Sequence record: PZ871100.1 | Direction: 5' to 3' (one strand) | Length of the DNA: 50,975 bases | From: a phage | In this document: in pieces, positions 28,458 through 48,852 of the stretch | Layout: the number at the start of each line of letters is the position of its first letter | How positions within the stretch are numbered: position 1 is the first letter of the stretch | Translations under genes and position numbers: made by a program | Notes under the pieces: model-generated | What the model saw: the letters and a program-made list of their open reading frames with translations, nothing else | Database searches by the model: none | What the model was told of the DNA's origin: nothing

Positions 28458-28512
28458 ATGCACCTCAAACAAAAAAGCCTGACAGATGATAACATCATGA
28501 CAGGCATTGTTT

Positions 28513-28986
28513 TTAGCAATTAGTGCTTTCAGGTTTATACAGGAATCCGCCAGGTTCATAATCTGACATTCTTACCACTCGCAACATTTCACGCTTATCA
28601 CATCTCTTTGTGAGCGGTTTTCCATTGGAATCAAATCGCAGATCTGGACGGCAGAATGAAGCGCGATAACCTTGACAGCCATACTTTTTATAATCATTGT
28701 GCACCTTTTGAGCGCCAGCGGCTGAAATCATACCGCGAACTCGCCACTGATTTACAGTTTGCTGGCTAACGTTAAGACGTTTTGCCATTGCTGACACACT
28801 TCCGTAATACTCAATAAGGATGTCAAGGCGTGCTTTTAGTCCGGCTCGCACTTCATCTTTTAAAACATAGTATCCTGTAGGGCGCTTGCGCTTCTTCTTG
28901 TCCTTGCCTCGTCTTGTTCCGTTATTGCCATTAATTGTGCGCTTGTCAATCTTTCCTGTTGATACTGCGATTCGTTGTTCTTTCAT
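28513..28986 (-). CDS. helix-turn-helix DNA-binding protein (putative regulator)
   Basis: 157 aa; basic N-terminus KDKKKRKRP; HTH-like SVSAMAKRLNVSQQTVNQW; heads the minus replication block. Confidence 0.5.
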   Translation of the reverse strand: MKEQRIAVSTGKIDKRTINGNNGTRRGKDKKKRKRPTGYYVLKDEVRAGLKARLDILIEYYGSVSAMAKRLNVSQQTVNQWRVRGMISAAGAQKVHNDYKKYGCQGYRASFCRPDLRFDSNGKPLTKRCDKREMLRVVRMSDYEPGGFLYKPESTNC

Positions 28987-28999: not shown

Positions 29000-29042
29000 A
29001 TAGCATTTTTTGTTAAACGATGATTTAATGATTGTGTATTAT
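29000..29042 (+). promoter_or_regulatory. conserved-box promoter-like unit (box ATAGCATTTTTTGTTAAACG + 17 nt + TATTAT), helicase operon
   Basis: Box 29000-29019, -10-like hexamer 29037-29042; divergent from HTH gene. Confidence 0.55.
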
Positions 29043-29075
29043 ACACGCCAAATGGCATTACTCAAAGGTTTTAGA

Positions 29076-31121: not shown

Positions 31122-31527
31122 TAAAGGCGATTATCTGGAGTTTTACGAAAGAGATCCGACAGATACGCTAAAAGAGGAATCGCACCAGATCGGGGCGTTT
31201 CAATGGTTGACTTATGCATACCCTGAATTGCTGGCATGGCATACGAAAAACGAGGGCGACAAGGGGATCGCTACAGCAATGATGGATCAGCAAGCTGGGC
31301 TTGTTAAGGGCGTAAGTGATTTTATCATCCTGATTGGATTAAAAGGCCGTTACCCGTTCGCGGCAATTGAGATGAAGCGCGTCAATAAGTCCGGCAAGGG
31401 TAAGGCTTCACCAGTCAGCAAAGAGCAAAAAGCCTTCTTGCGACGTGTGCGTGAGCTTGGCGGATTCGCCGCCGTAACATACGGATATAAGCAATTCATG
31501 ATCGCTGTAGAATACATGATGAAATAG
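31108..31527 (+). CDS. VRR-NUC domain nuclease
   Basis: 139 aa; SDFIIL...AIEMKR...KEQKAF motif arrangement of PD-(D/E)XK VRR-NUC. Confidence 0.65.
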   Translation: MAMTDKGDYLEFYERDPTDTLKEESHQIGAFQWLTYAYPELLAWHTKNEGDKGIATAMMDQQAGLVKGVSDFIILIGLKGRYPFAAIEMKRVNKSGKGKASPVSKEQKAFLRRVRELGGFAAVTYGYKQFMIAVEYMMK

Positions 31528-31567
31528 CACTTTTTGTTAAAACAGGCGCGAAGGATTGCGCCATAAT
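31524..31567 (+). promoter_or_regulatory. conserved-box promoter-like unit upstream of Dam-like gene
   Basis: Box ATAGCACTTTTTGTTAAAAC 31524-31543, inverted repeat GGCGCG...CGCGCC in spacer, CATAAT 31562-31567; upstream stop TAG inside box. Confidence 0.6.
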
Positions 31568-31601
31568 AACACCAGTTCAACAAGCAACAGGTAATTAAGA
31601 A

Positions 31602-32303
31602 ATGAGCAAAGAAACCGAAGTGACATTTGAACAAATAGAACGCGAAACATTCATTGGCAATGCTCTTGCTACTGGTGGTCATTACCAGGCTGTTAAACCA
31701 AATCAATATTTCAAAGTGACTGGCAACCGCTATAACGGCAGCAATACGCCGGACGTTGTGCGCGATTTGTGGTCTACGCCGTCTGAGGTTGTCACATGGA
31801 TGGAAAGCGAATACGGTGATTATGACATCGACGCGGCTGCAAGCAAAGAAAATTCTGTATGTGAAAAATTCTACAGCAAGGAAACAAATTGCTTAAAGCG
31901 TTGGTGGGGTAGTAACAAGCATATATGGCTGAATCCGCCGTACAGCAATATAACGCCTTTCGTTAAGAAAGCGATTGAGCAAATGGAGCACAATAACCAG
32001 ATCGACATTCTGTTACCTTGCGACACATCTACAGGATGGTTTTATGAGGCACAACAGAAAGCAGCGGAAATTATCTGGATCACTGGCGAAGTTTATCAGG
32101 AGGAAGGAACAGAATATTCCCGCACAGGACGCCTTGCGTTTACCTCGGCTCTTACAGGTAAACCAGTGCAGGGCAACAACAAAGGAAGCGTTATTTTCAT
32201 CATGCGCGAACTTAAAGAAGGTGAGCAGCAGAAAACGCGATACGTTAAAATCAGCGACATTTGCCCTTCGGTGGCAGACCGTCGCGCACGGAAACGGAGC
32301 TAA
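31602..32303 (+). CDS. DNA N6-adenine methyltransferase (phage Dam-like)
   Basis: 233 aa; catalytic NPPYS motif (WLNPPYSN). Confidence 0.7.
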   Translation: MSKETEVTFEQIERETFIGNALATGGHYQAVKPNQYFKVTGNRYNGSNTPDVVRDLWSTPSEVVTWMESEYGDYDIDAAASKENSVCEKFYSKETNCLKRWWGSNKHIWLNPPYSNITPFVKKAIEQMEHNNQIDILLPCDTSTGWFYEAQQKAAEIIWITGEVYQEEGTEYSRTGRLAFTSALTGKPVQGNNKGSVIFIMRELKEGEQQKTRYVKISDICPSVADRRARKRS

Positions 32304-32307
32304 AGCC

Positions 32308-32565
32308 ATGCAAAAAGAAAGAAGCATTTATTTAAATGAAACTGGAAAGTGGTTGTTATTTCGCGCTATGGTATGCGATGCACTTGATAAAAACCCTAAC
32401 GTGAAAAAGATGATTGATTGCGATCCGTGGGAATTTTCAAGCGCATTAGATATGAGCTTTGAGGAGACAAAAAAACTACCGCTTGAAAAATGGAGCGAGC
32501 AAATCAGAAATGACATGCAAGAATTTGTCGATTCGTGGAATTTTCAGCACGGAATGATCCACTAA
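32308..32565 (+). CDS. hypothetical protein
   Basis: 85 aa from ATG 32308; stop TAG embedded in promoter box. Confidence 0.4.
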   Translation: MQKERSIYLNETGKWLLFRAMVCDALDKNPNVKKMIDCDPWEFSSALDMSFEETKKLPLEKWSEQIRNDMQEFVDSWNFQHGMIH

Positions 32566-32608
32566 TAGCACTTTTTGTTAAAACGCCCGACCTTGTGTCG
32601 GGCATAAT
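32565..32608 (+). promoter_or_regulatory. conserved-box promoter-like unit
   Basis: Box 32565-32584, spacer inverted repeat GCCCGAC...GTCGGGC, CATAAT 32603-32608, leader CATCAAAACGA. Confidence 0.6.
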
Positions 32609-32640
32609 TATTTCATCAAAACGAACAAGAGGAAAATAAA

Positions 32641-32820
32641 ATGGTTGTTTACGATCCACGCGCTTTTAAAATTGCTCAAGAAGTTTCACGCGAATCTGTT
32701 GCTGGCGGTTCGGTTAACGGCTATCAGTTTGATTGGTCGGCAGCAATGACCCTGCTTAAGGTTGCATATGGTCACGCGCCAATTGAAACAGCGGAGGAAT
32801 ATTATAAGCATGAAGGTTGA
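32641..32820 (+). CDS. hypothetical small protein (59 aa)
   Basis: Below ORF-track cutoff; ATG 32641 with AGAGGA RBS downstream of promoter unit. Confidence 0.4.
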   Translation: MVVYDPRAFKIAQEVSRESVAGGSVNGYQFDWSAAMTLLKVAYGHAPIETAEEYYKHEG

Positions 32821-33052
32821 ACAAGGTAGGCAGGCCGTATGGGATCACGCAAAGGAATGCGGGATAGCAGAAGACATAGCCAGGATAGCGAAATATTTTG
32901 ATATTGCTGACATAAGCATTATCAGCGGCGACAAAATGACATTTCTCAATGAACGACCGCGCAAGATGCATCGCGTACCAGCAATACCAACAAAGATTGA
33001 TTTCAAAGAGGCTATGGCGAAAATTCGCGAGCCGCGCAAATACTACAAATGA
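32810..33052 (+). CDS. hypothetical protein
   Basis: ATG 32810 with GGAGGA RBS; 80 aa. Confidence 0.4.
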   Translation: MKVEQGRQAVWDHAKECGIAEDIARIAKYFDIADISIISGDKMTFLNERPRKMHRVPAIPTKIDFKEAMAKIREPRKYYK

Positions 33053-33150
33053 GGATTATTATCATGTGGCGTTTGTTACTTTTGCCCTTACCTGTTATGA
33101 TGGCGATCTCTATTGTATATGTTGTCATAATGAGATAAGGAGAATTTTTG

Positions 33151-34266
33151 ATGAAGCAAATCAAAATCACAGATGAACAATTTATCAATGAGCGCAAGCA
33201 GGGAAAGACATATAAGCAGATCGCTAGTGAGTATGGCATGAACGTTCGCAGCATTGAGCGACGCGCGGCACGATTAGCAAAGCAAGGTAAAGTTACAACC
33301 ATCGGATCACCTGGTTTTGGTGTTACTGGAGAATCAAAGCTAATTGATAAAGATGGCAATGTGGTTATGACATGGATTAAGACAAGCAAAGACCGCGAAC
33401 AGTTAGAAGCATTAATGCAGGCCGCTATGGATGCATTTAGCGAAGAGGTTCCTCGACTTGATCCACAGCCAGAATCACAAAAGAATTATAGCGAGACGCT
33501 ATCACTGTATCCGATCTTTGACATGCACTTGGGCGCAATGGCGCATAAGCATGAATGCGGCGAGAATTGGGATACAGCAACAGCAGAGCGCGTAATGAAT
33601 AATTTCATTGATTATTCCATCCAGTGTGCGCCGGATAGTGAAAAAGCTGTTTTGCTGATTGGTGGTGATATGCTTCACAGCGACGGACTGGAAGCGGTGA
33701 CACCTGCAAGCGGTCACGTATTGGATCAAGATAGTAGATATGCAAAACTTGTTTATGTTGCCATCCGGTCAGTGCGTCGAGCAATTACAAAGCTGTTATC
33801 AAAACACAAAAACGTCGAGATTCAGATCATTGAAGGCAACCACGACCAAAGCGGCATGATCTGGTTGCGCGCAGCAATGGCGGCAGCATATGAGAATGAG
33901 CCACGAGTGCATGTTGATGTGTCTCCGCGAGTGGTTCATCACACACAATATGGCAAAACGTTCCTGGCATACCATCACGGGCATACTATCCGCAAACCTG
34001 AAACATTGCTAATGATGTGCGCGGCAGACTGGCGCGAAGACTTCGGCAATTCAAAAATGATGTATGCTCACGTAGGGCACTGGCATCATCAAACAGTAAC
34101 TGAAACAAGCCTGGGAATTGTTGAAGTGCATAGCACTATGGCGGCAAAAGATGCATATGCTGCGCGCGGTGGATGGCGTTCTCGTCGCCGTGCGGCTGTT
34201 ATTGTTTATGATAAAGAATACGGAGAAGTAGGGCGATTTATGCATTATCCAGAAATGGCTGGTTGA
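33151..34266 (+). CDS. HTH domain fused to calcineurin-like metallophosphoesterase
   Basis: N-terminal HTH-like KTYKQIASEYGMNVRSIERRAARL; phosphoesterase motifs DMHLG, GGDMLHSDG, EGNHDQ. Confidence 0.6.
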   Translation: MKQIKITDEQFINERKQGKTYKQIASEYGMNVRSIERRAARLAKQGKVTTIGSPGFGVTGESKLIDKDGNVVMTWIKTSKDREQLEALMQAAMDAFSEEVPRLDPQPESQKNYSETLSLYPIFDMHLGAMAHKHECGENWDTATAERVMNNFIDYSIQCAPDSEKAVLLIGGDMLHSDGLEAVTPASGHVLDQDSRYAKLVYVAIRSVRRAITKLLSKHKNVEIQIIEGNHDQSGMIWLRAAMAAAYENEPRVHVDVSPRVVHHTQYGKTFLAYHHGHTIRKPETLLMMCAADWREDFGNSKMMYAHVGHWHHQTVTETSLGIVEVHSTMAAKDAYAARGGWRSRRRAAVIVYDKEYGEVGRFMHYPEMAG

Positions 34267-34309
34267 ACTTTTAATCATTAAAATATAAATATAAATCATC
34301 AATTTAATT

Positions 34310-34339
34310 GGGCGTGGCATTTTGCTTCGCCCTTTTTTT
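34310..34339 (+). terminator. terminator-like hairpin before lysis cassette
   Basis: GGGCG...CGCCC hairpin then TTTTTTT. Confidence 0.5.
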
Positions 34340-34412
34340 ATTCCTTTTTGTGCGTTCAATGGTTAGGATACAATCAATTAATTGTTGACTTTTATCTACA
34401 GGAGATCTAATC

Positions 34413-34628
34413 ATGAAAGATTTTTTAAACGCTGCAACTTCCGGCACTGGCGGCGCGTCAATCACTGGCGCGGTAACTGGTCAAACAACTATTGCAATAG
34501 CCAGCTTCGTTTTGATGGCTGCATTTGGTATGTGGGGCGCTTATCTTCGCTGGCGTGATAGTAAGGCGCTACGTGACGCGCTTGAATGCGGTGATATTAA
34601 GAAAGCTATTGAGATCAGAGGTAAATAA
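34413..34628 (+). CDS. holin (putative, single TM)
   Basis: 71 aa; one hydrophobic helix; charged C-terminus; directly upstream of endolysin with ATGA overlap. Confidence 0.6.
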
Positions 34629-35116
34629 TGAGTATAAAACAAAGAGTGACAGCTGCGGCTTTTGGCGTTGCTCTTGCCCTTACTTCTCCGCTACTGGAGG
34701 AAATAGAAGGAGTAAAACATAAGCCGTACAAAGATATTGCTGGGATATGGACGGTTTGCGCCGGAATAACTGGACCTGACGTAATACCAGGCAAAACGTA
34801 CACACAGAGAGAGTGCGATGCGCTACTGGCAAAGCATATCAAGATCGCAAAGGATGAAGTTGATAAACGTGTGAAGGTTGAGATTCCTGATACAATGCGC
34901 GCAGCGATGTATTCATTCACATACAATGCTGGCACTGGTGCTTTTAGAAATTCAACCATGCTTAAGCTGATTAATAACGGTCGTTATATGGAAGCGTGCA
35001 ATCAGTTATGGCGATGGACAAAATACACCAATCCAAAAACAGGAAAGAAAGAAACGTCTAAAGGACTGCGCAACCGCCGCGCGGTGGAATTTAAATATTG
35101 CATTAAGGATCTGTAA
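34628..35116 (+). CDS. endolysin (phage lysozyme, GH24-like)
   Basis: 162 aa; [26 protein letters not shown] signature region. Confidence 0.8.
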
Positions 35117-35118
35117 TC

Positions 35119-35517
35119 ATGAGAAAGTTATCAGCAATCGCGATCGCTGTTATTTTGTCTGGATGTTCAAGCGTTACGCCACTGACCGGATTAATCGGTA
35201 GTAAGCCGGAAATCACAGCACAGGCAGGAGCGGAGAACGTAAAGCAGACCGTTGGCGTTACCGCAAAGCAGGACACCAGCACGAAACAGGAAACTACAAT
35301 AAAGGAATCTGCGGTTGATAAGGTGGACACTTCCAGCAAGAAGGATTTCACTACGTCAACCATTCAGGCAAACACCATCAAGGCTGATAAAATCCAGGTT
35401 GTGCAGGGTGAGCAAAGGAAGTGGTACGATCCTATAATCTATTGCGCTGCAATTTTCAGTGGTCTTTTGACTATGCTTTACTTTTCCTACCGCAAAGATA
35501 ACAAAAAGGAGGCTTAA
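35119..35517 (+). CDS. unimolecular spanin (T1 gp11-like)
   Basis: 132 aa; N-terminal lipobox ILSGC and C-terminal TM helix; last gene of lysis cassette. Confidence 0.7.
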   Translation: MRKLSAIAIAVILSGCSSVTPLTGLIGSKPEITAQAGAENVKQTVGVTAKQDTSTKQETTIKESAVDKVDTSSKKDFTTSTIQANTIKADKIQVVQGEQRKWYDPIIYCAAIFSGLLTMLYFSYRKDNKKEA

Positions 35518-35533
35518 CGCCTCCTTTATTTTT
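35508..35533. terminator. terminator at end of lysis cassette (convergent junction)
   Basis: GGAGGC ttaac GCCTCC then TTTATTTTTAT; spanin stop codon in loop. Confidence 0.55.
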
Positions 35534-35750
35534 ATGCATCGGGCCATTCGTGGGAATGGTTTGTTAATTGTTGGTTTTCTTGAAACTCAATATCGTAATT
35601 ACCAGCCATCACGCGCATTGCCATGTTTTCAACATATTCTACAGCTTGCTCACGAGTCAATGAGTCGGCTGGGAACTTTGTAGGAATTTCAGTAGTAGTT
35701 CCGTTTTCATGCTTGACAACCAGCGCCACGGTGAAAAATTTGTTGCTCAT
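35532..35750 (-). CDS. hypothetical protein
   Basis: 72 aa; preceded by promoter unit and conserved leader. Confidence 0.45.
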   Translation of the reverse strand: MSNKFFTVALVVKHENGTTTEIPTKFPADSLTREQAVEYVENMAMRVMAGNYDIEFQENQQLTNHSHEWPDA

Positions 35751-35786
35751 GGTAACTTCCTTTTGTTGTTTCGTTTCGATGAAACA

Positions 35787-35830
35787 AATATACCCGATAC
35801 GAGATCGGGAGTTTTAACAAAAAGTGCTAT
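35787..35830 (-). promoter_or_regulatory. conserved-box promoter-like unit
   Basis: Minus-strand box (plus 35811-35830), spacer inverted repeat CCCGAT...ATCGGG, TATATT (plus 35787-35792), leader CATCGAAACGA. Confidence 0.6.
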
Positions 35831-35947
35831 TCAATACGCTTTACAGTAACCAACAAAACGCCGTCCTCATCACACAAATTATGCTCTGATATATCAAGCG
35901 CTCGCATGTCAGAATGAATGAGCGTTAACATTGCGTGCATGAAGTCG

Positions 35948-36340
35948 TCATGTGAGATTGAACTTACGGCGCAGAACTTCAATATTTTGTCTATTAGCAT
36001 TTGACGTAAACAATTCTTCATCGCTCATTTCTCCGATCCTTAAAACATCCCTTACCCATTCGTTTTGCATACCTTCCAGACTGTAAAGTTCAAACGAGAA
36101 AGGTCGATTTGCAGACCCTTTCTTACACCAGAACTTTCCACCAACTCCATCAAGATAACCAGCGGTCATCATTCTTGCGCAAAACTCTTTTGAAACGGCG
36201 GTTGCAAACATTCTCGGCGTAAATCCTGCGGCCCTTGCGAGCCGCTCACATTCTCTATGCTGAAATATAAATTTTGCGATATGTTGACGTGTAAACCATT
36301 CGAATGACTCACACCAGCGATACAGATCCAGAAGAAACAT
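35948..36340 (-). CDS. hypothetical protein
   Basis: 130 aa; start 2 nt after the upstream stop. Confidence 0.45.
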   Translation of the reverse strand: MFLLDLYRWCESFEWFTRQHIAKFIFQHRECERLARAAGFTPRMFATAVSKEFCARMMTAGYLDGVGGKFWCKKGSANRPFSFELYSLEGMQNEWVRDVLRIGEMSDEELFTSNANRQNIEVLRRKFNLT

Positions 36341-36342
36341 AA

Positions 36343-37926
36343 TTACCCCAGCAATGTTGGATTTACGAAAACAACGCCATTAATCACACAAATATAATTT
36401 CTTTCTTCAAGCATCGGCAGCAGTTGCGTTTCCATACGCTTCATTACGCCAGCCTGACCAACAAACGGCTTAACTTTTCGTGCAGCCTCATATATGGCGC
36501 GAACATTCAAGATTCCCTTGTTAGCCTTACCGTGTCGAGTGATAATCTCGATTAGTTTACCCATTTCAGCATCATCACCAGCATAGCCAGAAGCGTTGGC
36601 GGCGCTAATGTATGTTTTGCTCAACTCGCTAAACATCAGCAGTGCTTCCTGAACGGTTTCAACCTCAATCTCTTTCGACTTTTGAGGGTATCCGCCAGGA
36701 TTAAACCAATTGCGGATAGTGTGCAAAACCGAAGCAATCCTGATCACCTGCTTATCCATTTTGCCAAGCGCACCGCGCAGCATTGTATGCGAATACTTTC
36801 CGCCATCGGCAAGGTGCGGTTCCATCTCCTGACGAGCCATGTTAAGAACTCGCATTGCGGATTTGCTGATCTTAAGCTGGATGTTTGATTCACTCATGAT
36901 GTTATGGATCAGCTTGAAATATTGGCTTTTCAGTTCTCCATCAACAGGTTCATAAGTAGAATCACCGTTATCATCAACAAACTTTCTACGGCCTAAAAAT
37001 GATTCCTCACGCACAAGCAAATAACGCTCACTTACACCGATACCGCGAGATCCTGCATCCATGATGGCATTGATTGTTTCATCCTGGGCAATTACCGCCA
37101 TACAGCCAAGAGCTTTAAAACTCATATTGTTGTCAGCGTTTGCACGAGCTATAGAAACATGACCATGATCCCATGCTTTTAGCACAAGTTCGCTGTTGGT
37201 TTTACGTTCGCTATTGGCATATGTCAGACCTAAAAGGCTGTTAATACTTGTTGCCTCGTCTGAAATCACAGCAAAGTTACCCTGGCGATTGTTGATTCTT
37301 GCAAGTCCTTCCGGCGTTGTGTCGGACACAGGGAAAACGATGTCACACATCTTTTCCAGTTTTTCTTCCAGATCTTCTTTCTCCTGGTACAGGGATTCCA
37401 TATCAGCGCCGGAGCGCTCGCTTTTCATCTCTTTTGCAAGACCTGCCAACTTTGCCTGAATCTTTTTTCTTTCCTTCTTTCTCTGATCGTTAATTCTTTC
37501 CACTTCTGCAACCATTGGAGCAAGTGCCAGGCTGTTAACGGCAGATTTACCAGTTGAAGGAGGCTGGCTTGTGACAACATAAAGAGCGGTCGGCTGATCC
37601 GTTCCGTGATACTCAACAGTGAAGCGTCCAAGCATTGCAGCAGACACACATCCGATAAAATGCATATATGCCGATGATTCAGGAAATTGAACAGATCGAG
37701 CAATATTGCGCGCCAGCTTACCAACAATATCAACATCATTGCCGAGAGAAATTACAGGGTAGCGATCGTTTCCGTTATTAACATCATTAACCTCACCCCA
37801 AAAGCTGGACGATTGACGGTATCCGTTTGCCTGAATGGACACGCGCACAGGAGACAATCCTTGTGCATCAGCTAATTCGATAATTTGTTTTGGTGTTAGT
37901 TTATTGGTTTCAAACGAAAAATTCAT
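36343..37926 (-). CDS. P-loop NTPase, replication-associated (DUF3987-like, putative)
   Basis: ATG 37926 with AAGGAG RBS; Walker A-like PPSTGKS; acidic coiled region; own promoter unit. Confidence 0.4.
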   Translation of the reverse strand: MNFSFETNKLTPKQIIELADAQGLSPVRVSIQANGYRQSSSFWGEVNDVNNGNDRYPVISLGNDVDIVGKLARNIARSVQFPESSAYMHFIGCVSAAMLGRFTVEYHGTDQPTALYVVTSQPPSTGKSAVNSLALAPMVAEVERINDQRKKERKKIQAKLAGLAKEMKSERSGADMESLYQEKEDLEEKLEKMCDIVFPVSDTTPEGLARINNRQGNFAVISDEATSINSLLGLTYANSERKTNSELVLKAWDHGHVSIARANADNNMSFKALGCMAVIAQDETINAIMDAGSRGIGVSERYLLVREESFLGRRKFVDDNGDSTYEPVDGELKSQYFKLIHNIMSESNIQLKISKSAMRVLNMARQEMEPHLADGGKYSHTMLRGALGKMDKQVIRIASVLHTIRNWFNPGGYPQKSKEIEVETVQEALLMFSELSKTYISAANASGYAGDDAEMGKLIEIITRHGKANKGILNVRAIYEAARKVKPFVGQAGVMKRMETQLLPMLEERNYICVINGVVFVNPTLLG

Positions 37927-37953
37927 TGGTGATAACTCCTTTTTGATGCGGCA

Positions 37954-37997
37954 ATAATACCGCACCAATGCTACCCGCATTTAACAAAAAATGCTAT
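37954..37997 (-). promoter_or_regulatory. conserved-box promoter-like unit upstream of P-loop NTPase gene
   Basis: Minus-strand ATAGCATTTTTTGTTAAAT, 18 nt, TATTAT (plus 37954-37959). Confidence 0.55.
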
Positions 37998-38215
37998 TTG
38001 ATCCGCTCTATGCTAACTAAGATTTTTTCTGGTTCCTTTGCACTATGGCAATGCGCGGTTACAGAATCAACAAAATCAAAGTAAAGTGATTTGTGATATG
38101 AGAATCCAATCAGCCACCCAACCATCGTTTTCTTTATTGGCCTGACTATATCGCCAGGCTTAAAGGTTTTTGTTGCCGAATGAGTCACCTTATAGCGATG
38201 TTCAGCCTTGATCAC
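37994..38215 (-). CDS. hypothetical protein (GTG start)
   Basis: GTGA overlap with upstream stop. Confidence 0.3.
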   Translation of the reverse strand: MIKAEHRYKVTHSATKTFKPGDIVRPIKKTMVGWLIGFSYHKSLYFDFVDSVTAHCHSAKEPEKILVSIERIK

Positions 38216-38598
38216 TTATACATAGCCTCAAACAAATGACAGCCACCAGCGGAAAATCCAACTTCTTCGCGGTACAGCGTCCAGCGGTCGCCAGCTTCAT
38301 CAAACACATAACCAGCAACAGCGCCAAGCGCGCGGCCTTGCTCAATCTGGTAGCGCTTTCCTTCTTTGAAATGCTTTTTGCAAGGGATCTTGTGATCTAC
38401 AAAGGTGCATTTAATTGTTTTTGTCTTGATATGACGATAGTCAGACTCAACCGCGTTTTGCCACTTGCTACCATTTGTAATGCTCTTTACCTGGAATTGT
38501 TCCAACTCGATCACATCATCGCTACCAGCAATTTTTTCGTATACGGTTTTATAGCGCCCGTTCATCAAAACGTTGGTTTTATTGCAGATAACTTTCAT
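38212..38598 (-). CDS. hypothetical protein
   Basis: 128 aa; AAGGAG RBS; promoter unit upstream. Confidence 0.45.
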   Translation of the reverse strand: MKVICNKTNVLMNGRYKTVYEKIAGSDDVIELEQFQVKSITNGSKWQNAVESDYRHIKTKTIKCTFVDHKIPCKKHFKEGKRYQIEQGRALGAVAGYVFDEAGDRWTLYREEVGFSAGGCHLFEAMYK

Positions 38599-38629
38599 CG
38601 TTTATTTCTCCTTTCGTTTCGGTGAAATG

Positions 38630-38673
38630 ATTATGCCAGGCTTTTACACCTGGCTTTTAACAAAAAGTGCTAT
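38630..38673 (-). promoter_or_regulatory. conserved-box promoter-like unit
   Basis: Minus-strand box (plus 38654-38673), spacer inverted repeat GCCAGG...CCTGGC, CATAAT (plus 38630-38635), leader CACCGAAACGA; methyltransferase-like stop TAG in box. Confidence 0.6.
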
Positions 38674-39380
38674 TTTGCGTTTGCTTCAAAGACGGCGCGA
38701 GCAAAGCCGCGCGGAGTGAGGGAGCGGATCATCTTTGTGCGCGATGATTTTCCGCCAGTTTTGGCCCAACCAGGATTATCCTTGTCACCCTCTTTCGGAA
38801 GGATTGTTGAGCGCGGAGGAATAACAAATCCGTTTCCAGTCCAAAGGCATGTTTTCTTAAAGTACCGATCCCGCGCCGGAATAATATCAGGGAAGTCGGG
38901 ATGCTTATCATCTTCCTGCAGATAGCCAGCATAATCGCACGGATGGAACGTATAATCAGGCTTACGCCATAACGTTGACAGCTTGCCTACAGGATTTTCG
39001 ATCATGTAAGGAACGCCGAAATAATCAGCGATATGCGCCGCGATTCTGCAAGTGTCGGCGGCCTCATCCTGGAAAGAGGGATTCTCAAGGCGTTTTTTGG
39101 ACCAATGGCGAGATCCGCTATTTGCAAGGTCAGTGCACGGCGGAAATGCCATAATGAAATCAGGCTTGCCCCAATTTTCAAGTTTTGCGGTATATTTGAA
39201 TAGCTCATCAATCCACACATTAACGTAAAAAATATTATCATGGATTATGCGCACTGATTGGTAATCTCCATGATCTGCATCATCGTAATTAAAGCAAATG
39301 CATTTATATCCAGCATCAGCCCAATCTTTAACGGCTTTACCAGATCCATCAAACAAAGAGAATATTAAACCTTTATACAT
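38670..39380 (-). CDS. DNA C5-cytosine methyltransferase-like protein (putative)
   Basis: Motif I-like FSLFDGSG, motif IV-like FPPCTD, motif VI-like MIENPVG; stop TAG inside promoter box. Confidence 0.5.
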   Translation of the reverse strand: MYKGLIFSLFDGSGKAVKDWADAGYKCICFNYDDADHGDYQSVRIIHDNIFYVNVWIDELFKYTAKLENWGKPDFIMAFPPCTDLANSGSRHWSKKRLENPSFQDEAADTCRIAAHIADYFGVPYMIENPVGKLSTLWRKPDYTFHPCDYAGYLQEDDKHPDFPDIIPARDRYFKKTCLWTGNGFVIPPRSTILPKEGDKDNPGWAKTGGKSSRTKMIRSLTPRGFARAVFEANAK

Positions 39381-39389
39381 TTCATCACC

Positions 39390-39614
39390 TCAAAACGGAA
39401 AGCATCTAGGGCAGTTCGGATCAAAATTGCAACCACAATCATTAACAATCATGGTTGGATCTGCAAATGCAGCGCCGCATTCATGGTCCATATCCATTTC
39501 ACCCAACGCATCATCAAGCGTCCTGATTTTATATGCGACCTCAAGCGCGGCCTCTTTATTCAGTCCGGCATCTTCTGCTTTTTGCAGTCGCTCAAAAAAA
39601 CCGTCTTGACTCAT
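39390..39614 (-). CDS. hypothetical Cys-rich protein
   Basis: 74 aa; C-terminal DHECG...DCGCNFDPNCPRC; 9 nt upstream of methyltransferase-like gene. Confidence 0.4.
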   Translation of the reverse strand: MSQDGFFERLQKAEDAGLNKEAALEVAYKIRTLDDALGEMDMDHECGAAFADPTMIVNDCGCNFDPNCPRCFPF

Positions 39615-39724
39615 TTAATAAACTCCTTAACAACAGCAAGAATAATCACAAGCCCAGCAGTAAAAACAAGCAAACCGACAAGGCCAATCATAACACCAAA
39701 TAAAATATCAAGCGCCTTAATCAT
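39611..39724 (-). CDS. small membrane peptide (37 aa)
   Basis: Not in ORF track; MIKALDILFGVMIGLVGLLVFTAGLVIILAVVKEFIK; ATGA overlap with downstream gene. Confidence 0.35.
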   Translation of the reverse strand: MIKALDILFGVMIGLVGLLVFTAGLVIILAVVKEFIK

Positions 39725-39771
39725 TTATTCACCATTGATAAAATGGGAGGCGGCAACCTCCCATTGATTAA

Positions 39772-39999
39772 TCATACAGCCTTCCAGCTTTCAATAAACA
39801 TGCTGTTTTCTTCCAGAAGTTTAATCAATTCTTCGCGCGTATATTTGCGGATTTTACTACCTGGATGTGAGCCAACAACAAACACACCTTTACCACTCGT
39901 GATGGTTAACTGGTTGATTCCGCAAGATTTATCCATTTTCACGGCGACGCGGTGATGTGCATCAACAGTGTGCATGATGTTAGTGACTTTAGCTTTCAT
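39772..39999 (-). CDS. hypothetical protein
   Basis: ATG 39999 with GAGGA RBS and promoter unit upstream; 75 aa. Confidence 0.45.
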   Translation of the reverse strand: MKAKVTNIMHTVDAHHRVAVKMDKSCGINQLTITSGKGVFVVGSHPGSKIRKYTREELIKLLEENSMFIESWKAV

Positions 40000-40029
40000 T
40001 ATGCAATCCTCATTATATTTGGTTTGGTA

Positions 40030-40072
40030 ACTATACCAGGTTTGAGAAATATTGTTTAGCAATTCGTGCTAT
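40030..40072 (-). promoter_or_regulatory. conserved-box promoter-like unit (variant ATAGCACGAATTGCTAAAC)
   Basis: Minus-strand box (plus 40054-40072), 18 nt, TATAGT (plus 40030-40035). Confidence 0.55.
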
Positions 40073-40173
40073 AAGTTGAAATAGCTATGGCGCTTTGCTC
40101 GCTTGCCGTCTCCGCCATAATGATCATTTGCAACAGCTACCATCCAGGAATTATGGAATATTATTAGCTTCAT

Positions 40174-40455
40174 CTAATTAATGCCAACAACGTTAAAACT
40201 TACAGCTTTTGTTGCGCTAAATACATACGCTTCAACAGCCTCACCAAATACACGAATTTTTCCATAGCCGTACTGCGCATTCATATTGCGCCAAACCGTC
40301 CTGTTAGAGCAGAACGCGTTACCAGTCTTGATAAGATTATCCATCTCTTTTCTTAGATCATGATAATCAAGCCAAAATCTATAAGCGCGTTGTTTAATGA
40401 GTTTCGCTTTGATTGTTTCGGCTGAGTTTTTAAAATCGCTGTTTTTGTAGGCCAT
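40174..40455 (-). CDS. hypothetical protein
   Basis: 93 aa; TAATG overlap with upstream gene. Confidence 0.4.
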   Translation of the reverse strand: MAYKNSDFKNSAETIKAKLIKQRAYRFWLDYHDLRKEMDNLIKTGNAFCSNRTVWRNMNAQYGYGKIRVFGEAVEAYVFSATKAVSFNVVGIN

Positions 40456-40649
40456 TACACAACCTCCATAATAGTATTGAATCCACGCAGTTTGAAAGCA
40501 TTTCCATGTTTAACAACGTTCCATGTCAGGCCGGAGTGATACGCAACCATATCCTCAAGATCAATGGTGATGATAGCGCCTTTTTTAAAGATTCCTTTCT
40601 CGTGAGTGGTGTCACGCTGTACAACTTTAACATCAACTTGATTTTCCAT
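40455..40649 (-). CDS. hypothetical protein
   Basis: 64 aa; promoter unit and conserved leader (CATCGACAACGA...GAGGA) upstream. Confidence 0.45.
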   Translation of the reverse strand: MENQVDVKVVQRDTTHEKGIFKKGAIITIDLEDMVAYHSGLTWNVVKHGNAFKLRGFNTIMEVV

Positions 40650-40680
40650 TTTTAAATCCTCGTTCGTTGTCGATGCGCTT

Positions 40681-40724
40681 AATATACCAATCAGAGGCGC
40701 ATAGGTTTTAACAAAAAGTGCTAT
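40681..40724 (-). promoter_or_regulatory. conserved-box promoter-like unit
   Basis: Minus-strand box (plus 40705-40724), 18 nt, TATATT (plus 40681-40686), leader CATCGACAACGA. Confidence 0.55.
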
Positions 40725-41011
40725 TCAACAACAGATCCAGTTAAAGAGATAAGTGCTCTTGTGATCTTGTGTCTGCGATACTGACGCGCAACAACCGGAA
40801 GATTTTCACCGCTCTGATGACCCAAACAGATCGGCAACTCACCCTCAAGAGAGCGGAAGCCGCCAAATTCAAGATCCCGCACTGGCTTTGAGCGCCACGC
40901 TTCAATAAATCCGCGTTCGTCACGAGTGATATAGCGGTATATGTTAGGGAGGGGCAATTGTATCCCCTCAAAATCCACGGTATCGGTATAGCTGTAAAAC
41001 TTAGAACTCAT
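40721..41011 (-). CDS. hypothetical protein
   Basis: ATG 41011 with GGAG RBS; 96 aa. Confidence 0.4.
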   Translation of the reverse strand: MSSKFYSYTDTVDFEGIQLPLPNIYRYITRDERGFIEAWRSKPVRDLEFGGFRSLEGELPICLGHQSGENLPVVARQYRRHKITRALISLTGSVVE

Positions 41012-41153
41012 AGTCAACAACTCCAAATTCGTTAACAATTTGCGCCTTATAGAAGCCGCCATTTTTCGCAAGGTTGTAGCATGCCGCCACAGTTTCAAAT
41101 TCGCGCACTTCCGGCTTGCTGTTTTCGTGTTCCCAGGTAATCAGAGTAACCAT
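41001..41153 (-). CDS. hypothetical small protein (50 aa)
   Basis: Not in ORF track; GAGGA RBS; leader near-identical to that of 40455..40649. Confidence 0.35.
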   Translation of the reverse strand: MVTLITWEHENSKPEVREFETVAACYNLAKNGGFYKAQIVNEFGVVDYEF

Positions 41154-41186
41154 TTTTAAATCCTCGTATTCGTTGTCGATGTGTGT

Positions 41187-41230
41187 AATGTACAGGAATA
41201 CGAGGATTGAGTTTTAACAAAAAGTGCTAT
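41187..41230 (-). promoter_or_regulatory. conserved-box promoter-like unit
   Basis: Minus-strand box (plus 41211-41230), 18 nt, TACATT (plus 41187-41192), leader CATCGACAACGA. Confidence 0.5.
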
Positions 41231-41497
41231 TTAGTCCAGGAATTCGATTTCGCGCTCGCCAGTTAACGGATCTTTGATCCAGAATCCGAGCGCCTCACCG
41301 TAAATGCCGCCATAGAATCCAAGCGCCGACAGATCCTCACCTTTAACAAATACCAGATCACCGCTACGGCTTACGTGAGACACGTTAACGATAACCGGAA
41401 ATGTGCGGTTTTTAAATGCAGGCCGCAGGACGTAGCATCCATTGTTAAGCAGTCGTGCTTTGCGTTTCACCGGAATAGGTGCATTGATTCGCGCCAT
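41231..41497 (-). CDS. hypothetical protein
   Basis: ATG 41497 with AAGGAG RBS; 88 aa. Confidence 0.4.
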   Translation of the reverse strand: MARINAPIPVKRKARLLNNGCYVLRPAFKNRTFPVIVNVSHVSRSGDLVFVKGEDLSALGFYGGIYGEALGFWIKDPLTGEREIEFLD

Positions 41498-41510
41498 CTT
41501 TATTTCTCCT

Positions 41511-41756
41511 TCATTGTTGATCGTGTTTAACGGCAATCAGAACATCACAGGACTCGTTAATGAATTTAGCCATGCGCTTATCATCACCAACAGGTATTAG
41601 CGCATTAAACTCGCGTTTGCTACTGAATACCGTCACTTTATGAAATGATGCGAACGGCATCGACGGGAACTCTACTGTTTGCGTCAGTATACGCAATCCC
41701 ATCTTTTTGGCCCTTACTTGGGCCTCAGCGAGTTCAAAATCCACTTCATTAATCAT
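41511..41756 (-). CDS. hypothetical protein
   Basis: 81 aa; ATGA overlap with upstream gene. Confidence 0.4.
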   Translation of the reverse strand: MINEVDFELAEAQVRAKKMGLRILTQTVEFPSMPFASFHKVTVFSSKREFNALIPVGDDKRMAKFINESCDVLIAVKHDQQ

Positions 41757-42025
41757 TTCTTGATCTCCTCAGCAATAAACTTCAGGACTTTGCGCAAAAA
41801 CACTTCATTATTGATGGTCGCTGGCAATTCTTCTTTTACTTCTTGCGGCAGGTAAACGTTGCCATGCCAGGTTAAGCAATCGTAGTTGATACGATAAGAG
41901 CAAAGCCACTCGCAATCGTTATCCGCTTCCCAAATGCAGAGTTGCAGAACATCGCCGAAATTCTCAACAGTCAGGTCCAGACCATGACGCTTGGCGAAAT
42001 TGAAAGTGGTTTTGCTGATGTTCAT
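41753..42025 (-). CDS. hypothetical protein
   Basis: 90 aa; AGGAG RBS; promoter unit and conserved leader upstream. Confidence 0.45.
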   Translation of the reverse strand: MNISKTTFNFAKRHGLDLTVENFGDVLQLCIWEADNDCEWLCSYRINYDCLTWHGNVYLPQEVKEELPATINNEVFLRKVLKFIAEEIKK

Positions 42026-42064
42026 TTGCTTTCTCCTGATTGGTATCTCGTTTCGATGTATGCA

Positions 42065-42107
42065 TTATGACAAATACAGTCAGGCACGTTTTAACAAAAA
42101 GTGCTAT
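42065..42107 (-). promoter_or_regulatory. conserved-box promoter-like unit (first of the minus small-gene block)
   Basis: Minus-strand box (plus 42088-42107), 17 nt, CATAAT (plus 42065-42070), leader CATCGAAACGA. Confidence 0.6.
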
Positions 42108-42402
42108 TTGCTGACTGGTCATTATTCCATATATTCCATTAATCAGGAATAACAGGAATAACTCATTCGCGATCACCTGGATTGGGAGACTTTGAGTTTG
42201 GTCAATTTTAATCAAGTGATTAACTTTTTGTGTGGAGGGGATAGAGAAACGCGATCCTCTCGCACCCTTTCCGGCAATCCTGGCGCGCAACATGTTCATT
42301 ATGTTTCCAGCCGTTCACGCAAATAAGCCTCCGCAGTTCTTCCACGTTTCATGCTGTCATGCACACAAAAGAAACAATGTAAAATCTATATAAATACACA
42401 TT

Positions 42403-42600
42403 AAATCAATAAGTTAGTTATATATGTATTTATATTTGTTTCTTATTGTTCTTGTTGTGTGATGGTTATTGGTATATGTTGCGATTTTTGTGTTGGTGGA
42501 TATTGATTGTTTATTGTTCGATTTGGTTGATGATTATGGTTGCTCATGGTTGCGTATGATTCTTGATGTATTTATGTATATATCCGCGAAAATTCGCGAA
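42403..42600. repeat. GT-rich noncoding element B (homolog of 20900-21050)
   Basis: 16-mer AAATCAATAAGTTAGT at 42403-42418, GT-rich tract, inverted repeat CGCGAA aa TTCGCG near 3-prime end. Confidence 0.6.
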
Positions 42601-42707
42601 CAGCCACACAGCCAAAAAACATGATGAGGATTCTTTTGAAATCATGCACTTAACTGCGAATTTTGTTTCCGCGCAATCTCCACACGTATAGCGAACAATT
42701 AGAACGC

Positions 42708-42737
42708 TTGACATAGGCGCGGCGTGGTGGCAACATT
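42708..42737 (+). promoter_or_regulatory. possible sigma70-like promoter (perfect TTGACA, weak -10) with adjacent inverted repeat
   Basis: TTGACA 42708-42713; weak -10 CAACAT/AACATT about 17-18 nt downstream; GGTGG...CCACC inverted repeat overlaps. Confidence 0.3.
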
Positions 42738-42774
42738 GCAACCACCAAAAACAGAGCAAATAGGAGTTACACCC

Positions 42775-43236
42775 ATGACCATGACAAGCAAGGAATTTTG
42801 CGATATGTTGCGAGTTAATGCAGCCTCACTAGCTAACGGGGATGTTAGCGAACTGCAAATCAAGGAGCTTGACTTGCAATGTAATATTGCGCCGGAAGAC
42901 TTGAGGAAAATTAACGCCTCATACATCCGAACGATTATGAATCGAACGCCGGAGGTGAAAGCCGTTGGCGTGGTGAAGGTTGAACGCGTTCGAGGCGATG
43001 CTGACATTCCTGATTGTTATCGCGTAACAATTAACCAGAATCCAAAGCGCCGCTTGCTGACAGATGAAGAACTGCCAAAACTTGAAAGTAAGTGGCGAGC
43101 AAAGTTTATTGCTCAACTGCTTAAAACACAGCCGCGAATCAGCGATCTGGAAGGTGAGCGCCTGGAAGGTGCGGCAATCGCACTTGAGCGAATGAATGAA
43201 ATGCTTAACGATATGGTAAAGATGGAGGATGAATAA
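42775..43236 (+). CDS. hypothetical protein (first gene after noncoding region B)
   Basis: ATG 42775 with AGGAG RBS; 153 aa. Confidence 0.45.
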   Translation: MTMTSKEFCDMLRVNAASLANGDVSELQIKELDLQCNIAPEDLRKINASYIRTIMNRTPEVKAVGVVKVERVRGDADIPDCYRVTINQNPKRRLLTDEELPKLESKWRAKFIAQLLKTQPRISDLEGERLEGAAIALERMNEMLNDMVKMEDE

Positions 43237-43496
43237 TGACTAAGGCATTAATTGGAGTTTTGATTGCAATCGCTACCCTGACCGGATGCGAAAAGGCATC
43301 GGAATCAACGGTTGTAGCAGGCGTGGAGTCAGATTTCAAAGTCGGTCGCCTGTTCACTGTTGACGGATGCACAGCATACAGATTCTATGATAACGGTCGC
43401 GCGATCTATTACACCAATTGCAAAGGCGCAACGAATAGCACGCGCAACAGCGGAAAGTACATAATGCACCAGCAAGTCACAACAGATATTGAATAG
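43236..43496 (+). CDS. small lipoprotein (second Cor/Llp-like candidate)
   Basis: 86 aa; signal peptide and lipobox LTGC; GGAGG RBS; TAATG overlap. Confidence 0.5.
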   Translation: MTKALIGVLIAIATLTGCEKASESTVVAGVESDFKVGRLFTVDGCTAYRFYDNGRAIYYTNCKGATNSTRNSGKYIMHQQVTTDIE

Positions 43497-43536
43497 CACT
43501 TTTTGTTAAAACGCCAGGTGCGAATCCTGGCATAAT
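43493..43536 (+). promoter_or_regulatory. conserved-box promoter-like unit
   Basis: Box 43493-43512, spacer inverted repeat GCCAGG...CCTGGC, CATAAT 43531-43536, leader CATCGAAACGA. Confidence 0.6.
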
Positions 43537-43569
43537 AGCCTCATCGAAACGAGATTGAGGAAAACAAAA

Positions 43570-43956: not shown

Positions 43957-44000
43957 ATAGCACTTTTTGTTAAAACTTAAAAACGATAACCAGGCATAAT
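43957..44000 (+). promoter_or_regulatory. conserved-box promoter-like unit
   Basis: Box 43957-43976, 18-nt spacer, CATAAT 43995-44000. Confidence 0.55.
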
Positions 44001-44054
44001 AAATCACATAGGGCGGCACGGCGTCGCCCGGTAAACCAATCAGGAGAAAGCACC

Positions 44055-44945: not shown

Positions 44946-44988
44946 ATAGCACGAATTGTTAAAACTCAAATGTGGGGCCAGGTATAAT
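44946..44988 (+). promoter_or_regulatory. conserved-box promoter-like unit (variant box ATAGCACGAATTGTTAAAAC)
   Basis: Box 44946-44965, TATAAT 44983-44988 inside inverted repeat GGCC...GGCC. Confidence 0.55.
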
Positions 44989-45018
44989 GGCCTCACTTTC
45001 AATGAAGGAGATAAAACT

Positions 45019-46008: not shown

Positions 46009-46166
46009 CATGGATTCTATTTGTGATTATCACAAGCTACAATTCAGCCGCAATTGAGTCTCGCGAGTTCCACGGTGAATCAAGATGTCAGGCCGCGAGA
46101 GAGCAAGTAATTTTGCATATGTCAGATAACGATAAAGAAGTTGAAGTATTCTGTGTTCGTAAATAG
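46005..46166 (+). CDS. hypothetical small protein (53 aa, hydrophobic N-terminus)
   Basis: Not in ORF track; ATGA overlap with phosphatase stop; stop TAG inside promoter box. Confidence 0.35.
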   Translation: MTWILFVIITSYNSAAIESREFHGESRCQAAREQVILHMSDNDKEVEVFCVRK

Positions 46167-46206
46167 CACTTTTTGCAAAAACAGATTATCGGGCTTGCTG
46201 TATAGT
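46163..46206 (+). promoter_or_regulatory. conserved-box promoter-like unit (variant ...TTGCAAAAAC)
   Basis: Box 46163-46182, TATAGT 46201-46206, inverted repeat GGGCTT...AAGCCC. Confidence 0.55.
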
Positions 46207-46236
46207 AAGCCCATCTACAAAAACGAGGATTAAATC

Positions 46237-47467: not shown

Positions 47468-47507
47468 CACGAATTGCTAAAAGCGGGGCGCAATGCCTCG
47501 CTATAAT
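47464..47507 (+). promoter_or_regulatory. conserved-box promoter-like unit (variant ATAGCACGAATTGCTAAAAG)
   Basis: Box 47464-47483, TATAAT 47502-47507. Confidence 0.55.
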
Positions 47508-47537
47508 GCAAACACCAATCAACGAGAGGAAATCATC

Positions 47538-48809: not shown

Positions 48810-48852
48810 TAGCACTTTTTGTTAAAACTTCCGCGAGGGCATTTGTTAAAGT
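48809..48852 (+). promoter_or_regulatory. conserved-box promoter-like unit
   Basis: Box 48809-48828, 18-nt spacer, weak hexamer TAAAGT 48847-48852, leader TTGAAGCGAAACAGAGGAAA. Confidence 0.45.

Follow-up and report, generated by a model that had tools for sequence, protein, structure and literature searches.

What is selected in the short inverted repeats, variable in sequence, that lie inside the repeated promoter cassettes of a T1-like phage? The question is raised by sequence record PZ871100.1, whose 50,975 bp (hereafter the window, meaning the whole stretch of DNA analysed) are the complete genome of a T1-like siphovirus, 99.7% identical over 5 kb to Escherichia phage EC147 and ~95% identical to phage damhaus (Drexlerviridae, Tempevirinae, Hanrivervirus). 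A preliminary description of this DNA had noticed that in many cassette copies the 18-nt spacer between a conserved box and a -10 hexamer is itself an inverted repeat, and had proposed for it a structural role, as a cruciform or stem-loop or as a 3'-terminal hairpin in the transcript of the upstream gene, rather than that of a sequence-specific operator. We find that the pairing is conserved and the sequence is not, and that the stem-loop is selected as sense-strand RNA. We further put at about 0.6 the probability that the cassette is a compact module in which this RNA stem-loop is the 3' end structure of the upstream cistron, acting as an attenuator or terminator and/or as an exonuclease barrier.

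The box itself belongs to a known repeat. The 21-nt direct repeat of phages TLS, T1, Rtp and Rogue1 had its function left open in 2024, with stoperator, enhancer or UP-like roles proposed (PMC11447400). The cassette box (aaATAGCACnnnTTGnTAAAA) is this TLS/T1 repeat, intergenic and co-oriented with transcription, with the same T, G and A subtypes and the same placement upstream of start codons (PMC11447400). In the window the box AGCACTTTTTGTTAAAAC occurs 17 times at up to 3 mismatches, where 0.1 occurrences are expected, and a looser pattern that admits the known GAA and AAA subtypes brings the cassette total to 21. A tRNA scan and an Rfam scan at gathering score, both of the whole window, returned no matches. 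The TLS paper, the sole description of the repeat that we found in the literature, covers the 21-nt repeat alone, with no fixed-distance -10, conserved leader or systematic nested hairpins; its table places terminators T62 and T57 directly after repeats DR12 and DR10, and makes no comment on it (PMC11447400).

A gapless alignment of the window copies gives the box as (a)aATAGCACnnnTTGyTAAAAc, followed by a variable spacer of 18 nt (17-19 nt), a -10-like hexamer (CATAAT or TATAAT), a discriminator of ~6 nt, CATCGAAACGA, a Shine-Dalgarno sequence and ATG. The box spans about -51 to -31 and holds the stop codon of the upstream gene. The predicted +1 is the A of CATC, 7 nt past the -10, which gives a leader that begins A(+1)UCGAAAC, and the Shine-Dalgarno sequence and ATG come 25-45 nt after +1. 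To this we added a family set: an exact-match IMG/VR scan for the box found 120 loci on T1-like contigs, which with five related genomes yielded 483-519 unique cassettes. In 460 of these a -10 lies 17-19 nt from the box, and in 409 of those 460 the distance is exactly 18 nt. In the position weight matrix the box is invariant, G-14 stands at 85%, the -10 reads yATAAT (A at position 2 and T at position 6 in 88% each), positions -5..-2 are C-rich, and A+1 (83%) is followed by TCGAAAC. The discriminator is C-rich and G-poor even where there is no hairpin (36% C, 9% G), and the only sequence-free positions of the cassette are the spacer and the discriminator.

The cassette has no consensus -35 at 17 bp; the TTGYTA of the box sits 22 bp from the -10. 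This non-standard sigma-70 layout, with G-14 and a C-rich discriminator, suggests that a phage or host factor reads the box. The only obvious box-binding candidate predicted from the genome sequence is a 157-aa protein (28513-28986, minus strand) with a sub-threshold Cro/YdaS-like helix-turn-helix (HTH) match (Pfam 29.8 bits, cut-off 30) that also matches PHROG 2856, 'transcriptional regulator'. Two further identities for the box were rejected. As a sigma-54 promoter (TGGCAC-N5-TTGC) its spacing is, by eye, 2 nt too short; in the extended -10 reading (TGnTAAAAC) the critical last base is a C, and a good -10 lies 18 nt downstream. The G at -14 in 85% of copies is extended -10-like, and the first ~12 nucleotides of the predicted transcripts are alike family-wide, A-U-C-G-A-A-A-C-G-A and then A-rich (for example 32615-32626 and 43543-43554).

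Within this frame the hairpins take two placements. Class A hairpins have both arms within the spacer. Class B hairpins straddle the -10 hexamer, which then sits in the loop, the 5' arm occupying the 3' half of the spacer and the 3' arm the discriminator. To ask how far such pairing exceeds composition, we sorted the cassettes by the gene that follows them, which gave 181 orthology groups, each represented by one cassette, and used as main control a permutation of each alignment column, which keeps positional composition exactly. Among 162 representatives the 34-nt promoter core has a mean minimum free energy of -10.75 kcal/mol, and 75% of cores reach -8 kcal/mol or lower; the permuted controls average -4.5 kcal/mol with 11% at that level (maximum 17% in 20 runs), and random genomic windows give 12%. 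Helices of at least 7 bp between the box and +3 occur in 66% of 148 representatives vs 10.8% after permutation (maximum 18.9% in 200 permutations). Confined to the 20-nt spacer, as the preliminary description had them, helices of at least 6 bp occur in 33% vs 8.5% (the same 148 representatives and 200 permutations, maximum 14.9%), so that spacer pairing, too, lies above controls. The position weight matrix does show G enriched at -23..-20 and C at -5..-2, as would be wanted if the hairpins were chance or a by-product of a G-rich spacer facing a C-rich discriminator, a reading to which we give practically no weight: permutation that preserves this very composition gives the 11% against the observed 75%, which refutes it.

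The pairing moves about while it is kept. Stem registers spread over more than 10 positions, with 5' arms starting anywhere from -31 to -22, and in groups of cassettes upstream of the same gene the stems differ in sequence, in register and even in class; in group 1, for instance, they read CCGGTCAGAGCGATCGGG, TGCCCCGCGCGAGTGGGG and GGGGTAAC..tatagt..TATCCC. Orthologues also show compensatory changes, as in the pair GAGGGCA/TGTCCTC vs AAGGGCA/TGCCCTT and the series GGGGTG/CACCCC vs GGGGTA/TACCCC vs GGGGCA/TGCCCC. A fixed-register test on an unselected, ungapped alignment of 148 representatives (alignment A1) recovers the main class B register: columns 27-33 pair with 44-50 in 54.0% of cells vs 46.9±1.0%, a value that 0 of 500 shuffles reach, and the covariation score of this register (0.262 vs 0.180) beats every slid register. 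A single fixed class A register gives no signal on the same alignment (42.8% vs 42.2%), because class A stems spread over at least four registers; register-free tests were therefore used. This behaviour bears on the idea of a dyad operator for a dimeric protein, such as the Cro/YdaS-like HTH protein binding in the spacer in the style of MerR. Symmetry inside a promoter spacer and an HTH regulator encoded by the phage are what such an operator would call for, but the half-sites of the 13 window hairpins, like those inside orthologous groups, have no sequence in common, the arm position shifts and G·U wobble is tolerated, and we give the idea hardly any credence. The preliminary description's setting aside of a sequence-specific operator is thus supported.

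We next consider the strand and the nucleic acid in which the pairing is read. We folded the cores without allowing G·U pairs and recorded each single mismatch that had a Watson-Crick pair on either side. Counting every combination of group and context once, we obtained 75 cases of G·T or T·G and 6 of A·C or C·A. With the conserved -14..-7 positions removed the ratio was 40 to 6 (p = 3e-7), vs 48:58 in the column-permuted control, and GG, TT and CC mismatches, dominant in the control, were almost missing from real stems. Antisense RNA folds less stably than sense RNA, by a mean of 2.0 kcal/mol and in 74% of copies. Class A loops are mostly tetraloops: counted by group and loop there are 18 GNRA, 5 UNCG and 15 others, where local composition leads one to expect ~9% GNRA plus UNCG. 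Of the GNRA loops 33 of 36 are closed by C-G, and C(GNRA)G and C(UNCG)G are enriched. Together the sense-strand G·U bias, the loop types and the stability asymmetry make a cruciform, a dyad operator or an antisense terminator unlikely.

An antisense or bidirectional terminator had been a candidate in that the opposite strand offers GUUUUAAC after class A stems and a terminator scan flagged position 31562 on the minus strand. We rejected it on the G·U tolerance of the sense strand, and for class B it also fails because the stems are not adjacent to the box.

A DNA structure within the promoter would put the repeats to a different use, as a cruciform or extruded hairpin that presents or moves the -10, or that shortens the 22-bp distance from TTGYTA to the -10, which is too far for a normal sigma-70 -35. 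The repeats do lie exactly between the box and +1, class B loops hold the -10 hexamer, and DNA folds in the window are significant on both strands. A cruciform, however, needs both strands, and G·T is tolerated on the sense strand only; arms of 5-8 bp are short for cruciform extrusion, and with loops of 4-8 nt these fold at -6 to -9 kcal/mol per strand. Shifting position and register are incompatible with a fixed geometry, about a quarter of cassettes have no hairpin, and hairpins are rarer at operon heads, which still need working promoters. Phage N4 offers the nearest precedent, its virion RNA polymerase using promoters with an inverted repeat around -12; the N4 hairpins, however, are DNA structures that a phage RNA polymerase reads, with a position that is fixed and a sequence that is conserved, whereas the cassette pairing is RNA-like, strand-asymmetric and variable in position, no phage RNA polymerase is known here, and no gene for one has been reported in the literature. 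We consider a DNA promoter structure very improbable.

Thirteen of the 21 window cassettes carry hairpins, 6 of class A and 7 of class B, and 8 lack a local hairpin. All five inverted repeats cited in the preliminary description are present between box and -10. As RNA they fold at -7.5 to -13.9 kcal/mol (z -2.3 to -4.7), and as DNA at -6 to -9 kcal/mol on either strand. The 'many copies' of that description come to six spacer hairpins among 21 cassettes, which extend beyond 31.5-43.5 kb; it had overlooked the sixth, at 47483-47501, and the commoner placement around the -10. The cassettes are listed below, with the RNA folding energy in kcal/mol and its z; for the five cited repeats the energy is that of the 34-nt core, and z is taken against 200 dinucleotide shuffles.

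31524..31574 (+): class A; box 31524-31543 with the upstream stop TAG, stem-loop 31545-31562, -10 CATAAT 31562-31567, predicted +1 at 31574; -11.4, z -3.2
32565..32615 (+): class A; box 32565-32584, stem-loop 32585-32603 of 7 bp (GCCCGAC/GTCGGGC), -10 at 32603-32608, +1 at ~32615; -13.6, z -4.7
35780..35830 (-): class A; box 35830-35811, stem-loop 35809-35793 (CCCGAT/ATCGGG), -10 TATATT 35792-35787, tail UAUAUUUGUUU; -7.5, z -2.3
38623..38673 (-): class A; box 38673-38654, stem-loop 38654-38635 (GCCAGG/CCTGGC), -10 CATAAT 38635-38630; -13.9, z -4.3
43493..43543 (+): class A; box 43493-43512, stem-loop 43513-43531 (GCCAGG/CCTGGC), -10 at 43531-43536; -11.3, z -2.5
47464..47514 (+): class A; GAA-type box 47464-47483, hairpin 47483-47501, -10 TATAAT 47502-47507; -13.1, z -2.65
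22276..22327 (+): class B; variant box 22276-22295, hairpin 22304-22327 with -10 TATAAT 22313-22318 in the loop; -13.2, z -5.2
28470..28529 (-): class B; hairpin 28505-28477 with -10 TATCAT in the loop, then a T7 run; -13.5, z -3.4
37945..37997 (-): class B; hairpin 37966-37945 with -10 TATTAT 37959-37954 in the loop; -14.9, z -3.2
40673..40724 (-): class B, borderline; hairpin 40702-40673 (AUGCGC/GCGCAU), -10 at 40686-40681; -8.3, z -1.7
44946..44996 (+): class B; GAA-type box, 17-nt spacer, hairpin 44972-44996, -10 TATAAT 44983-44988; -16.4, z -4.4
46163..46213 (+): class B; hairpin 46191-46212, -10 TATAGT 46201-46206; -14.8, z -4.3
48809..48859 (+): class B; hairpin 48835-48858 including G·U pairs, -10 TAAAGT 48847-48852; -14.2, z -5.3
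41159..41230 (-): no local hairpin; 13-bp long-range helix of spacer 41208-41196 with leader and Shine-Dalgarno sequence 41171-41159; -17.5, z -3.6
43957..44029 (+): no core hairpin (0 kcal/mol); small GC hairpin at ~44011-44029, just past the predicted start
29000..29049 (+): no hairpin; first promoter of the rightward helicase operon, no upstream co-directional gene; z -0.7
42057..42107 (-): no significant hairpin; heads the leftward early operon, in a divergent intergenic region; z -0.7
40022..40072 (-): weak 5-bp pairing only; GAA-type box; z -1.4
20737..20786 (-): no hairpin; upstream of a 75-aa Cor-like gene, no upstream co-directional gene; z 0.07
10071..10121 (-): degenerate cassette-like copy without hairpin, antisense to tail genes; z -0.2
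6311..6361 (-): degenerate cassette-like copy without hairpin, antisense to head genes, poor -10 TATGGG; z 0.4

Some of these copies call for comment. The arms at 31545 had been given as GGCGCG/CGCGCC; the repeat exists, its stem being GGCGCGA/UUGCGCC with one G·U pair and a perfect part of GGCGC/GCGCC. The hairpin at 32585-32603 has a U-rich tail, AUAAUUAUUU, and is flagged as terminator-like by the scan, and that at 48835-48858 shows a compensatory change from G-C to A-U in a relative (L031). Upstream of cassette 22276 the exonuclease gene stops at 22273-22275, and cassette 29000+ is divergent from the regulator/primase operon. The hairpin 28505-28477 with its T7 run has the full shape of an intrinsic terminator, after the HTH regulator gene and upstream of the primase gene, and its cassette corresponds to T57/DR10 of TLS. 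At this same cassette the usual annotated primase ATG, 28559 (as in damhaus), overlaps the regulator gene and lies upstream of the cassette and its terminator hairpin. An alternative ATG at 28457, with a GAGG Shine-Dalgarno sequence, lies just past the cassette and, to judge by this arrangement, looks like the real primase start. The two degenerate boxes (6342-6361 and 10102-10121, minus strand) lie in intergenic gaps of the late region, have poor -10s and are kept in relatives; box 10102-10121 sits right after a canonical terminator (AAGGGGCGTTGCGCCCCTTTTTTT, plus strand).

Which transcript would carry the stem-loop? We examined 421 cassettes with a co-directional open reading frame (ORF) of at least 50 codons upstream. 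In 272 that ORF stops at the TAG of the box (aTAGcac), and in a further 97 its stop codon overlaps the box edge, so that the stop lies inside or touching the box in 369 of 421. The stem-loop follows 17-30 nt past the stop codon, the usual place of terminators and 3' stabilisers. A hairpin of -8 kcal/mol or lower is found in 80% of cassettes with an upstream co-directional ORF and 41% of those without; by groups, in 115 of 142 vs 7 of 16 (Fisher p = 0.002). The window's operon-head cassettes 29000+, 42107- and 20786- are among the hairpin-less. In both classes the 3' arm is upstream of the predicted start, so the hairpin would form only in RNA arriving from upstream. Of the structural roles first suggested, the 3' hairpin of the upstream transcript is therefore the one favoured, by sense-strand G·U tolerance, sense-strand stability, GNRA and UNCG loops and the association with upstream ORFs; the cruciform is the one that falls, with strand-asymmetric pairing, short arms and small loops.

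We propose that read-through RNA from the upstream gene would fold into the stem-loop, which would be nested in the next promoter because there is no other space for it. Once folded it would attenuate or terminate the read-through and/or block 3'-to-5' exonucleases, and each small gene unit would be partly insulated as a result. A minority of copies, such as 28505-28477 with its T7 run and 32585-32603 with AUAAUUAUUU, would act as full intrinsic terminators. Most stems lack a U-tract, and for this reason the nested stems are, on their sequence, most likely partial attenuators and/or 3' exonuclease barriers rather than full stops. Two further features set class A apart. The discriminator holds a TTT run in 22% of class A copies, against 3% where there is no hairpin and 0% in class B, which suggests a class A subset selected for termination. 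C at -12, that is CATAAT for TATAAT, occurs in 47.5% of class A vs 14% of class B, which may mark a trade-off at -12 in which the class A stem costs the promoter.

Several points weigh against this proposal. Those 7 of the 16 groups without a long upstream ORF nonetheless carry a hairpin. The U-tract is mostly poor: class A stems have a mean of 3.5 U in the 8 nt that follow, with at least 5 U in 26%, and class B stems a mean of 1.1 U, with at least 5 U in 2.5%, so that U-tracts are present in single copies (28477 with T7, 32585 and 35809) and termination at most hairpins may be weak or absent. Single-stranded DNA, too, tolerates G·T better than any other mismatch, and the sense-strand hairpin could in principle be one of such DNA. 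The p-values given here are approximate, the copies being phylogenetically related. Finally, we found no transcriptome or start-site map of the T1 family in the literature, so promoter activity, start site and 3' ends are all predictions.

The cassette hairpins can be set beside known RNA elements. Like rho-independent terminators, the cassette hairpins have GC-rich stems of 5-10 bp, frequent C(GNRA)G or C(UNCG)G loops, a position 17-30 nt past the stop and a U-rich subset; they differ in that ~90% of the nested hairpins have no U-tract, while canonical U-tract terminators occur elsewhere in the phage (35505-35527). That terminator, a perfect 9-bp hairpin with T-runs on both sides between convergent genes, is a canonical bidirectional one. 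Intercistronic mRNA stabilisers, of the REP (repetitive extragenic palindromic) type or as 3' stem-loops, are barriers to PNPase and RNase II. The cassettes share with them a stable hairpin without U-tract 3' of a cistron, variable in sequence and conserved in pairing; REP sequence, on the other hand, is conserved, whereas that of the cassette stems is not.

The RNA could instead act forwards, on the downstream gene in read-through RNA, with the hairpin perhaps joined by the AU-rich RNA of the box. It could mask or insulate the Shine-Dalgarno sequence, stabilise the 5' end after processing in the box, or serve as a nut-like signal (linear box plus hairpin) by which RNA polymerase is modified; transcripts from read-through and from the promoter would then differ in behaviour. 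This is unlikely in our judgement, if worth keeping in sight, and it shares all of the sense-strand, RNA-level evidence. Cassette 41230- speaks for it, with its spacer AAUCCUCGUAUUC paired to GAAUACGAGGAUU, the next gene's leader and Shine-Dalgarno region, in a helix (41159-41208, minus strand) that exists only in read-through RNA and so does not form in the cassette's own transcript. This helix shows a compensatory change in relatives, from CGUA/UACG to CGCA/UGCG in phage vB_EcoP_06 and record MG065640.1, with a G·U intermediate in a third genome (L049). In several orthologues CCUC at -4..-1 pairs with the Shine-Dalgarno sequence, and a conserved box followed by a variable hairpin resembles a boxA/boxB layout. 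Family-wide, however, Shine-Dalgarno accessibility is 0.380 with the real and 0.394 with a shuffled spacer and discriminator (p = 0.30), and we rejected general masking or insulation in read-through RNA on this similarity; single cassettes may still have a forward role. The hairpin's distance from the box varies (-31 to -22), unlike a rigid two-part RNA signal, while the rigid spacing from box to -10 is that of a DNA promoter element; the association with upstream ORFs is compatible with either direction.

It is less likely again, on our reckoning, that the cassette is a dual signal, serving as a phage-specific promoter in DNA while, in read-through RNA, the conserved AU-rich box and the variable hairpin beside it form a nut-like or processing signal on which the continuation of read-through polymerases or transcripts would depend. 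Were this true, the mRNA of one gene would be handled in one way when it came from read-through and in another when it started at the promoter, as the 41230- helix hints. T1-like phages, for which no RNA polymerase or sigma factor is known, would then possess a built-in temporal or insulation switch.

Returning to the cassette as a module with a 3' stem-loop for the gene upstream, we asked whether similar modules exist. T4-like phages RB49/phi1, PST and nt-1 carry promoter-early stem-loop (PeSL) cassettes. In these repeated early promoters the stop codon of the preceding gene falls in an A/T-rich stretch on the upstream side, and a Shine-Dalgarno sequence and ATG follow downstream (Arbiol et al. 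2010, PMC2839356; Comeau et al. 2014, PMC4122927). One PeSL stem-loop cut lacZ expression as strongly as rrnB T1, and recombination between PeSLs shuffles ORFans (PMC2839356, PMC4122927). The likeness extends to a repeated intergenic module with stop, promoter (here a predicted one), Shine-Dalgarno sequence and ATG in the same arrangement, to a variable stem-loop nested in the promoter, mostly between upstream element and -10 or overlapping the -10 (both placements occur here), to stems of G-runs and C-runs, to concentration among small early genes, and perhaps to indels between relatives that are bounded by cassettes. The differences are as plain. T1-like phages are Drexlerviridae siphoviruses and the PeSL hosts are T4-like myoviruses, where PeSLs occupy hyperplastic regions, and there is no sequence homology; the cassettes have a near-invariant 21-nt box with TTGYTA 22 bp from the -10, where PeSLs have a consensus -35 at 17-bp spacing; the stop codon here is usually the TAG inside the box; and promoter and terminator activities have been measured for PeSLs. 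The T1-family cassette is an analogue of the PeSL, not a homologue.

The parallel with PeSLs raises the possibility that the inverted repeats are kept mainly as DNA, for recombination or cassette mobility (shuffling of the PeSL type, or mini-circles), and that any RNA role is secondary. Of 43 early-region homology breakpoints against relatives, 11 lie within 20 nt of a cassette core, where 5.5% are expected by area; ordinary gene boundaries do not form the background of this enrichment, which is accordingly suggestive only. Phage vB_EcoP_06 (L003) lacks the two-gene module between cassettes 40072- and 40724- (window 40015-40655, compared with 35169-35177 of L003) and keeps one chimeric cassette, joined in a shared GAGGAT, which from its sequence looks like a cassette-to-cassette recombination. 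Other indels abut cassettes 43957, 44946, 46163 and 35830, and in RB49 crossovers were mapped in the stem-loop. Taken together this hints that cassettes may bound indels and replacements, with genome dynamics like those of PeSLs. The hairpins as such are another matter. The vB_EcoP_06 junction lies in the Shine-Dalgarno region, outside the hairpin; breakpoints are expected at gene boundaries in general, which inflates the enrichment; variable arms offer no homology between cassettes; and a role in duplex DNA does not predict the G·U/A·C asymmetry or the GNRA and UNCG loops. That recombination is what maintains the repeats is therefore quite improbable. Among the relatives, MG065640.1 (L004) is labelled 'Campylobacter phage A14b' (UNVERIFIED); it belongs to Hanrivervirus and shares 88-92% identity with this coliphage. 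The query matches 20 'Campylobacter' records of this kind, so the host label is probably an error or a sign of contamination.

For T1-like phages these results place the 21-nt repeat, whose function had been left open (PMC11447400), in a module of box, -10, start and leader, in which the positions left free show selection for an RNA stem-loop that would belong to the transcript from upstream. For annotation they matter in that most such sites are missed by terminator and promoter predictors, and for the engineering of Drexlerviridae the cassettes are natural, self-contained insertion units. The resemblance to PeSLs without homology suggests that composite promoter and stem-loop cassettes arose independently in T4-like and T1-like phages, where they pack and shuffle small early genes.

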